A DNA stretch of 63,253 nucleotides, filler included, from Reclinomonas americana ATCC 50394 (lineage: Eukaryota): the NCBI GenBank assembly GCA_048213135.1. It is 17 parts of 17 records of this genome, joined end to end, with 100 filler letters (N's around TTAATTAATTAA, not from the genome) between each part and the next. Parts side by side here need not be neighbours in the genome. Positions count along the whole stretch, not along the records: positions 38,193 to 40,546 come from AFZH01016852.1; positions 40,647 to 41,793 come from AFZH01016853.1; 15 more parts are not named here. One strand, written 5' to 3'. Under the pieces are notes generated by a model. It had not been told where the DNA came from. It was given only the letters and a program-made list of their open reading frames with translations, and made no database searches. Position 1 is the stretch's first letter. Each line of letters begins with the position of its first letter. Of the stretch, positions 39,674 through 40,653 are shown piece by piece. The position numbers and the translations under genes are program-made.

Positions 39674-39865
39674 CTATCGAGGAGCACCAAAGCAGTTCCC
39701 CAGGCCAGGGCCCTGAATAGGAGCTTGAGTCGCACGGTGTTGTTGGTGTTGCGGGGGATGCGCGGTCGAGGGCTGTGGAGCTGGTCGATGTTGCACGGGA
39801 ACCGCATGACGAATGGCTGTGTAGTGCACAATGGGGCGGGCGGGACGCGGAGGCTCCTTGGTCAT
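39674..39865 (-). CDS. Small Pro-rich peptide (63 aa) ending GLGNCFGAPR; paralog of 40220-40366
   Basis: MTKEPPRPARPIVH...IQGPGLGNCFGAPR*. It shares the N-terminal M.K....P.RPI.H pattern, the C-terminal core and upstream motifs with its neighbour. Confidence 0.7.
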   Translation of the reverse strand: MTKEPPRPARPIVHYTAIRHAVPVQHRPAPQPSTAHPPQHQQHRATQAPIQGPGLGNCFGAPR

Positions 39866-40219
39866 TGTCGTGTTGAAGGGAGGGGAAAAGAGGGACGGTG
39901 CGCGCGCGCAGACGATGCGAAAGTTGGATGCGATCGATGGAGATAGCTAGAGCTAGCTCACAGCTGGCTGTGCTGTCCGCCATGCTGCATACATAAGATA
40001 AATATCGCATATGCATGTGTGTTGCTCTGGCTCTTGGAGAGGACTGCTTCCACGACACAGCTGCCAGTACAAAAGAAGGGGTGTTCACTGCAGTGACAGT
40101 AACAGCGAAAAGCTGCGAGCTACTACTCAATCTCACTTCCGGCACTCAGCGCGCTGCACGAAAGCGCCACAGGAGCGAGCGAATGTGTTGCACGCGACCG
40201 CAATACTGGCAGGCAGCTC

Positions 40220-40366
40220 CTATCGTGGGGCACCCATGCAGTTGCCCAAGCCGTTCACAGGAGCACCCATGCAGTTGCCCAACCCATTCACGGGACGCGG
40301 CTTCGGCGCGGCAGGCTGGTTAGGATGAAAGATAGGACGAGGGGGAAGCACGAATTGCTTGGGCAT
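40220..40366 (-). CDS. Small Pro-rich peptide (48 aa) with two VNGLGNCMGAP repeats; too short for the supplied ORF track
   Basis: MPKQFVLPPRPIFHPNQPAAPKPRPVNGLGNCMGAPVNGLGNCMGAPR*. The two 33-nt repeats differ at 4 positions, all synonymous third positions in this frame. Confidence 0.75.
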   Translation of the reverse strand: MPKQFVLPPRPIFHPNQPAAPKPRPVNGLGNCMGAPVNGLGNCMGAPR

Positions 40367-40653
40367 TTGCTAATCTGAAGAAGTGAGAGCAAGGAGATGG
40401 GGAGCGCGTGCAGACGACGAAGAAAGAATCAGGAAGAAATAGACAGACTCGAAACAACTGGGTGGCAGCTAGCTCAATCACTATGTCCGCACACTCAGAC
40501 ACACGCCAGCTCTCGATCTTGCATGTCACACGACCTTCTCTGCACANNNNNNNNNNNNNNNNNNNNNNNNNNNNNNNNNNNNNNNNNNNNTTAATTAATT
40601 AANNNNNNNNNNNNNNNNNNNNNNNNNNNNNNNNNNNNNNNNNNNNTACGTAC

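Follow-up and report, generated by a model that had tools for sequence, protein, structure and literature searches.

The DNA analysed here is a 63,253-base stretch from Reclinomonas americana ATCC 50394 (the window), which consists of 17 contigs of 1.0-15 kb joined by 16 linkers, and our subject is a pair of short open reading frames (sORFs) encoded in tandem on the minus strand of one contig. True context on this contig (38193-40546; 2,354 bp, 54% G+C) extends from 180 nt upstream of the first sORF to 1.48 kb downstream of the second. sORF1 (40220-40366) comprises 48 codons and sORF2 (39674-39865) 63 codons, each followed by TAG, and their ATG codons are 501 nt apart. An earlier examination of the sequence (the original prediction) had proposed both frames as peptide-precursor genes, and its coordinates and TAG ends were confirmed.

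The two sORFs share one layout. Each begins with a 14-codon block of the form M.K....P.RPI.H, hereafter the N-block, which occupies 40325-40366 in sORF1 and, as delimited by alignment to the sORF1 block and by a hidden Markov model (HMM), 39824-39865 in sORF2. The first residues are MPKQF and MTKEP, respectively, and the two blocks align without gaps, being identical at 7 of 14 positions (M1, K3, P8, R10, P11, I12 and H14). The spacer that follows differs in sequence and in length, with 11 Pro-rich residues in sORF1 versus 40 residues rich in Pro, Gln, His and Ala in sORF2. The C-terminal part is the core, identified by pattern scan and codon comparison: sORF1 contains two 11-residue units, A (40259-40291) and B (40226-40258), both VNGLGNCMGAP and placed back-to-back without a linker, versus a single GLGNCFGAP in sORF2 (39680-39706). 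Tandem Repeats Finder also reported the sORF1 units, as a 33-nt repeat of 2.0 copies at 40230-40295. A single CGA (Arg) codon and TAG come after unit B and after the sORF2 core, and both products end in GLGNC(M/F)GAPR. At the borders of the cores the residues read RP-VNGLGNCMGAP, AP-VNGLGNCMGAP and GP-GLGNCFGAP, with Pro immediately before and at the end of all three.

This combination is peculiar to the pair within the window. Among its 453 ATG-initiated ORFs of at least 30 residues, only the partner reached 7/14 identity to an N-block, the remaining ORFs having at most 4 identities to the sORF1 block and at most 6 to that of sORF2. A degenerate DNA pattern for G-L-G-N-C-(M/F/I/L)-G-A-P matched three times in the window, always inside the sORFs, and never in 100 shuffles. 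The predicted products are basic (net charge +5 and +6) and contain 19-25% Pro. As had been claimed, neither has a signal peptide: no signal-peptide-like or membrane segment was seen, and no 9-residue stretch exceeded a mean Kyte-Doolittle hydropathy of 1.0 (maxima 0.98 and 0.72).

Differences between the conserved blocks were counted as synonymous or non-synonymous by the Nei-Gojobori method, with pS and pN denoting the proportions of the respective sites that differ. Core units A and B differ in four codons (AAT/AAC, GGG/GGC, GCT/GCC and CCT/CCA), in each case at position 3, giving 4 synonymous differences and 0 non-synonymous ones (pS 0.52, pN 0). By our own arithmetic, the probability that four changes placed at random are all silent is about 0.002 (7.7 synonymous sites out of 33). 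Between unit B and the sORF2 core there are 4 synonymous differences and 2 non-synonymous ones, the latter in one M/F codon (pS 0.49, pN 0.09). The changes listed in the original prediction, synonymous only between the 33-nt repeats and consisting of CTG/TTG, GGG/GGC, GCT/GCC, CCT/CCA and one M/F replacement between the genes, were recovered exactly, and the comparison of silent and replacement changes in the cores that it had called for yielded the above values. The N-blocks have diverged further, with 7.5 synonymous and 9.5 non-synonymous differences (pS 0.75, pN 0.30); four of their seven conserved residues (R, P, I and H) are retained through different codons.

The original prediction also took the silent changes as a sign that the peptide encoded in the minus-strand frame is under selection. 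The conclusion stood, although the argument given for it was insufficient: the silent-site pattern alone does not fix the strand, because the antisense frame with coinciding wobble positions preserves the cores well too (9/10, 7/10 and 5/8 residues). Four further observations together fix the strand as sense. The sense frame was the best of the six in each of the four blocks compared (11/11, 10/11 and 8/9 identities for the cores, 7/14 for the N-block); in the N-block the antisense frame contains a stop and has only 4/13 identity; the plus-strand ORFs have nothing in common except the mirror image of the core; and the two sense ORFs have their ATG and TAG at homologous positions. These data support the view that the sORFs are paralogues under purifying selection on two peptide blocks, the 14-residue N-block and a 9-11-residue Cys block located one Arg before the stop.

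A second shared feature lies 5' of each gene. The 14-nt element TCGTCTGCACGCGC (40404-40417, minus strand) is found 38-51 nt before the sORF1 ATG and its counterpart TCGTCTGCGCGCGC (39902-39915, minus strand) 37-50 nt before the sORF2 ATG, with the consensus TCGTCTGC(A/G)CGCGC. Local alignment of the upstream flanks scored 26, a value equalled in 1 of 300 shuffles. The exact pattern has two sites in the window, those before the sORFs, and 4 further sites when 2 mismatches are allowed (shuffle mean, 1.74 matches). The downstream flanks were no more alike than shuffles (83/300), and self-blastn returned a single similarity, of 23 nt at 87%, in the cores. DNA similarity between the units is confined to the cores and the upstream element; since the flanks are otherwise unalike, the duplication is old and the conservation selective. 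The surviving coding blocks and the short 5' element fit two separately started units. A TAG is present two codons ahead of the sORF1 ATG; upstream of sORF2, 27 codons are open in frame, none of them an ATG.

A possible remnant of a third unit is located about 800 nt further along the same strand. When the six frames of the window were scanned with the N-block HMM, the best non-self match was the degenerate stretch TTQIFVLPPWPVWH (39023-39064, minus strand; 9.9 bits, E 0.16), which is identical to the sORF1 block at 7 of 14 positions and has no ATG at the homologous position; tblastn gave it an E value of 0.017. Direct reading revealed a possible core relic, SQCVGAHLRR followed by a stop (38964-38996, minus strand), in another frame than the third N-block and outside the top 12 matches of the core HMM. 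Between the two lies a 20-nt GT...AG segment that would bring them back into one frame; its length is far below that of the one intron seen in the window (~57 nt). The case for a decayed third family unit at 39064-38964 is marginal.

The original prediction did not recognise the family, and protein, Pfam, PDB and repeat comparisons gave no match either. A word-indexed search of 5.8 billion protein clusters produced no candidate at near lengths for the 63-residue query; for the 48-residue query it produced one at near lengths and 132 at longer ones, none at E<=10. An exhaustive phmmer search of the 48-residue peptide against 1.84 billion representatives returned one match, P0001 (1014 residues, E 9.4e-14). 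It was rejected as a relative: this protein is an array of 11-residue GAPVFGV(A/T)DAR-type repeats that matches through a periodic GAPV.G only, without GLGNC or an N-block. Neither sORF belongs to a Pfam family, neither peptide matched PDB sequences at E<=10, the ESM Atlas gave no usable match for either, and the motif strings retrieved only an irrelevant match in a full-text literature search. The degenerate core DNA pattern had 0 matches in viral contigs. It was found at 6 loci in prokaryote genomes, all in broken or unrelated frames, and at 5 loci in metagenome contigs, none of them with an N-block or with a stop directly after the motif; three of these were identical and had a stop right before the motif, the fourth lay in an open but unrelated frame, and the fifth in one that stops interrupt. 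The metagenome and prokaryote matches were treated as chance. The searched collections under-represent unannotated eukaryotic sORFs, so the missing relatives are weak evidence of absence.

The original prediction would have been undermined by a match to a known protein or transposon fragment. None appeared in the collections searched, and blastn found no second copy of the sORF contig within the window (0 matches at E<=1e-3), so that an origin from a dispersed repeat or transposon is unsupported there. Neither Rfam nor a tRNA scan returned anything for the window. Twenty-four sequencing runs contained at most 0.06 of the sampled words, small fractions for which the microsatellites flanking the sORF contig account. 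When four runs were aligned, one contig was placed, through 18-21-nt scraps at 38920-39095, and nothing aligned to the sORFs.

Taken as a whole, the above findings make it likely that the pair represents real, translated, paralogous small coding genes of an orphan family. Even if their products act as intact micro-proteins, one sequence alone suffices to demonstrate that selection acts at the peptide level on sORFs of 48-63 codons, through the silent sites at which internal repeats, and likewise paralogues, diverge. Neither the searched protein collections nor routine annotation contain these ORFs.

As to function, our preferred reading, which we consider possible rather than probable, is that the sORFs encode signal-peptide-less leader-spacer-core precursors of a short Cys peptide. 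The products would be cytosolic and would consist of a leader, a variable Pro-rich spacer and one or two cores. A processing or modifying enzyme could use the N-block as its recognition handle, and the C-terminal unit, of which sORF1 has two copies and sORF2 one, could be the delivered product. Because Pro both precedes and terminates each core, post-proline cleavage would be the simplest release route. Cyclisation or modification of the single Cys might follow release, and export, if any, would be non-classical. Several features favour a delivered peptide: the number of cores differs between the genes, the units abut, the cores are at the extreme C-terminus and Pro bounds each of them. Furthermore, the entire 11-residue sORF1 unit is identical in both copies despite its silent divergence, including two residues that are absent from sORF2. 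The RiPP-like (ribosomally synthesised and post-translationally modified peptide) or signalling role suggested in the original prediction is plausible from this layout. An asparaginyl-endopeptidase-type cyclisation at N-GL was also considered and was dropped, the VN-GL junction being present in sORF1 only. Such cyclisation requires the secretory pathway. A putative likeness of the PRP-rich N-block to insect proline-rich antimicrobial peptides came under consideration as well; neither product carries a signal peptide.

Several points weigh against a precursor. Pfam identified no modifying enzyme, protease or exporter among the 35 ORFs of at least 45 residues on the 2.35-kb contig, none of which scored above cut-off (the only sub-threshold match, CILP_5th, had 17.5 bits versus a cut-off of 27). 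The sORFs carry none of the known processing signatures sought, namely a CaaX end, dibasic sites between units or a follower peptide. Post-proline cleavage would need added specificity, since the spacers contain many further prolines. A pair of conserved motifs on either side of a variable, disordered linker would suit an unprocessed motif-bearing micro-protein equally well. The G+C content at third codon positions (0.65 in sORF1, 0.53 in sORF2) is not above that of the Pfam-supported exons of the window (0.71 pooled). Finally, as relatives were not found in any collection searched, the conservation is documented by three copies of the core and two of the N-block, all on a single contig.

Signal-peptide-less multi-core precursors are known from few eukaryotic lineages only, those of the Agaricales toxins, of lipopeptide pheromones in fungi and of certain cyclic peptides in plants. 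If the precursor reading is correct, this short list would gain a family that combines a leader of its own with a conserved Cys core, and the mass of its product would be predictable.

The MSDIN precursors of the Agaricales (cycloamanide/amatoxin-type) are 33-37 residues long, are encoded by clustered genes and are processed by the prolyl oligopeptidase POPB; a 10-residue leader starting with MSDIN precedes a hypervariable 6-10-residue core, which has Pro on both sides, and a conserved 17-residue follower (PMC5159998). The sORF products resemble them, as there described, in being very small, in lacking a signal peptide, in having a conserved leader that starts with Met and in being clustered paralogues. 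Pro directly before the core and as its last residue (3/3) is a further likeness, though weak evidence in peptides with 19-25% Pro. The differences are substantial. There is no sequence similarity, the sORF leaders (MPKQF and MTKEP) are neither MSDIN nor a single-residue variant of it, and a long variable spacer separates leader from core. Instead of a 17-residue follower, the next core or a single Arg comes after the core. The core, of 9-11 residues and present twice in sORF1, is the best-conserved part of the sORFs (8/9 to 11/11) and not a hypervariable one. With regard to POPB, the only S9 peptidase seen in the window is of the DPP-IV type and is located on an unlinked contig.

Similarities to fungal pheromone precursors were likewise partial. 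The h-type HPP1 of the Hypocreales (5.1 kDa) carries three copies of a Cys motif, one of which sits at the very C-terminus, and the rhodotorucine A precursors of Rhodosporidium contain tandem pheromone copies (PMC3068285). Like these precursors, the sORF products are small, have no signal peptide and carry a repeated Gly/Leu-Cys motif whose last copy is C-terminal, and they derive from paralogous small genes that differ in copy number. Against the three Cys-motif copies of the h-type, sORF1 has two and sORF2 one, the final copy lying one residue before the stop. Unlike lipopeptide pheromones, neither sORF encodes a CaaX end, the Cys being sixth from the end (C-M/F-G-A-P-R) and not fourth in both; Kex2 sites are absent from the sORFs, and a mating-type context is not visible on the 2.35-kb contig. 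Kex2-processed repeat, alpha-factor-like and dikaritin precursors carry an N-terminal signal peptide. Their cores have Kex2 cleavage sites on either side (PMC9769878, PMC7329392). Identical tandem cores within one precursor are a feature that sORF1 shares with all three groups, whereas the sORF products have no hydrophobic N-terminus, and the units join directly (GAP-VNG) with no KR or RR in or beside the cores.

The pair is thus a member of none of the tested families and at best works like a small multi-core precursor. That it founds a new class of eukaryotic ribosomal precursor is, in our judgement, distinctly unlikely; such a class would be cytosolic and have one or two Pro-bounded cores of 9-11 residues containing Cys, Asn and Gly, whose release would be directed by a new 14-residue leader, M.K....P.RPI.H. 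In that case the cores would perhaps be macrocyclised or modified at Cys, and the sequences of the class would bear no relation to those of MSDIN, borosin, dikaritin, orbitide and CaaX-pheromone precursors.

The strongest alternative to a precursor, which we regard as somewhat unlikely, is that the sORFs encode intact micro-proteins: basic, Pro-rich, disordered chains whose two blocks act as linear motifs that bind one or two partners, the duplicated motif of sORF1 providing avidity. In insects, the tandem sORFs of the polished rice/tarsal-less gene encode motif peptides that act intact. Such a role would account for conservation being limited to two short blocks around a variable spacer (11 versus 40 residues), and it is consistent with the lack of hydrophobic segments, the Pro content and charge of the products, and the fact that neither a processing signature nor a modifying enzyme was seen on the contig. 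It fits less well with the motif copies of sORF1, which abut without a linker and of which the full 11-residue unit is invariant, an arrangement more typical of product units; moreover, no known motif class or partner was identified for either block.

It is improbable that the pair is non-functional, whether as a decaying local duplication, a chance pair of ORFs or a by-product of selection on the opposite strand. ORFs of 48-63 codons are common at 54% G+C, as the 453 ATG-ORFs of the window illustrate, no relatives were found in the searched collections, and the wobble-sharing antisense frame keeps most core residues (9/10, 7/10 and 5/8). However, the two coding blocks were kept, at a silent-site divergence of 0.44-0.75, in spite of flanks that can no longer be recognised as related. 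The antisense N-block, with its stop and 4/13 identity, and the plus-strand ORFs, which share the core mirror image only, speak against selection on the other strand, and three motif matches versus none in 100 shuffles speak against chance.

A role as regulatory upstream ORFs (uORFs) is highly improbable. Here, both sORFs would lie in a long 5' leader, and the nascent C-terminal block would stall the ribosome at the stop, controlling a main ORF further downstream. For the conserved-peptide uORF of AT1G70780, which has 51 codons, codons 39-50 have been reported to suffice for termination arrest (PMC5587730). The sORFs are similar in being ORFs of about 50 codons in which the last 10-12 residues and the position of the stop are conserved, the block of about 10 residues adjoining CGA TAG in both. 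In contrast to the conserved-peptide uORFs so described, they also conserve the N-terminus, duplicate the motif internally, so that one core is followed by Val instead of a stop, and have a separate conserved upstream element each. No main ORF is recognisable in the 1.48 kb downstream, where the contig ends (38193), and the leader would have to exceed 1.2 kb.

Equally hard to credit is the idea that the sORFs are exons or other parts of a larger spliced gene, or its alternative terminal exons: the organism has spliceosomal introns, including one of ~57 nt in a DPP-IV-type gene, a pyrimidine tract with AG dinucleotides lies immediately 5' of the sORF1 ATG and the sORF2 frame is open for 27 upstream codons, but there is a TAG two codons before the sORF1 ATG and no AG from the pyrimidine tract to the sORF2 ATG, the conserved block begins exactly at Met and a stop follows shortly after the core in both ORFs, and the protein cluster and phmmer searches found no longer protein bearing the motifs.

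Regarding the wider setting, each linker has the structure N44-TTAATTAATTAA-N44 (for example at 4496-4595, 5612-5711 and 14809-14908), which produces 32 runs of exactly 44 N. As the window is a concatenation of contigs, adjacent contigs cannot be taken as linked. Pfam analysis of 121 window ORFs revealed exon-sized pieces of ordinary genes only, among them an RFC C-terminal domain, ADA2 ZZ/Myb, an H-type lectin, GH30 and Chlam_PMP repeats. The source organism is a eukaryote with spliceosomal introns, some of them short. A multi-exon gene for a DPP-IV-type S9 serine peptidase is located on the plus strand at ~7650-12791 (contig 5712-14808), with DPPIV_N pieces in the ORFs 7061-7849, 7853-8014, 8561-8854 and 9435-9815, Peptidase_S9 pieces in the ORFs 12139-12444 and 12441-12791, and an intron of ~57 nt at ~7811-7867 (GTGCGT...CTAAC...CAG). 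Although this gene encodes a post-proline peptidase, its location on a different contig means that it cannot be tied to the sORFs. The contigs 4596-5611 and 21790-23578 have 65-66% G+C versus 50-57% in the other 15, and the latter contains long overlapping ORFs without a Pfam match (21860-23200, minus strand, 446 residues; 21959-23158, plus strand, 399 residues); a repeat element or DNA of foreign origin is a possible explanation. Long microsatellites of the types (GA)n, (GT)n, (GAGT)n and (CTGT)n at 38194-38272, 38443-38674 and 40650-40740, on either side of the sORF contig, probably explain the assembly break there. Downstream of the sORFs, an exon-like segment on the minus strand (38673-38764) has a pyrimidine tract and CAG acceptor at ~38765, an open frame with ACCATGG and a GTGAGT donor at 38672 that leads into the microsatellite; the segment possibly belongs to a minus-strand gene that has gone unrecognised.

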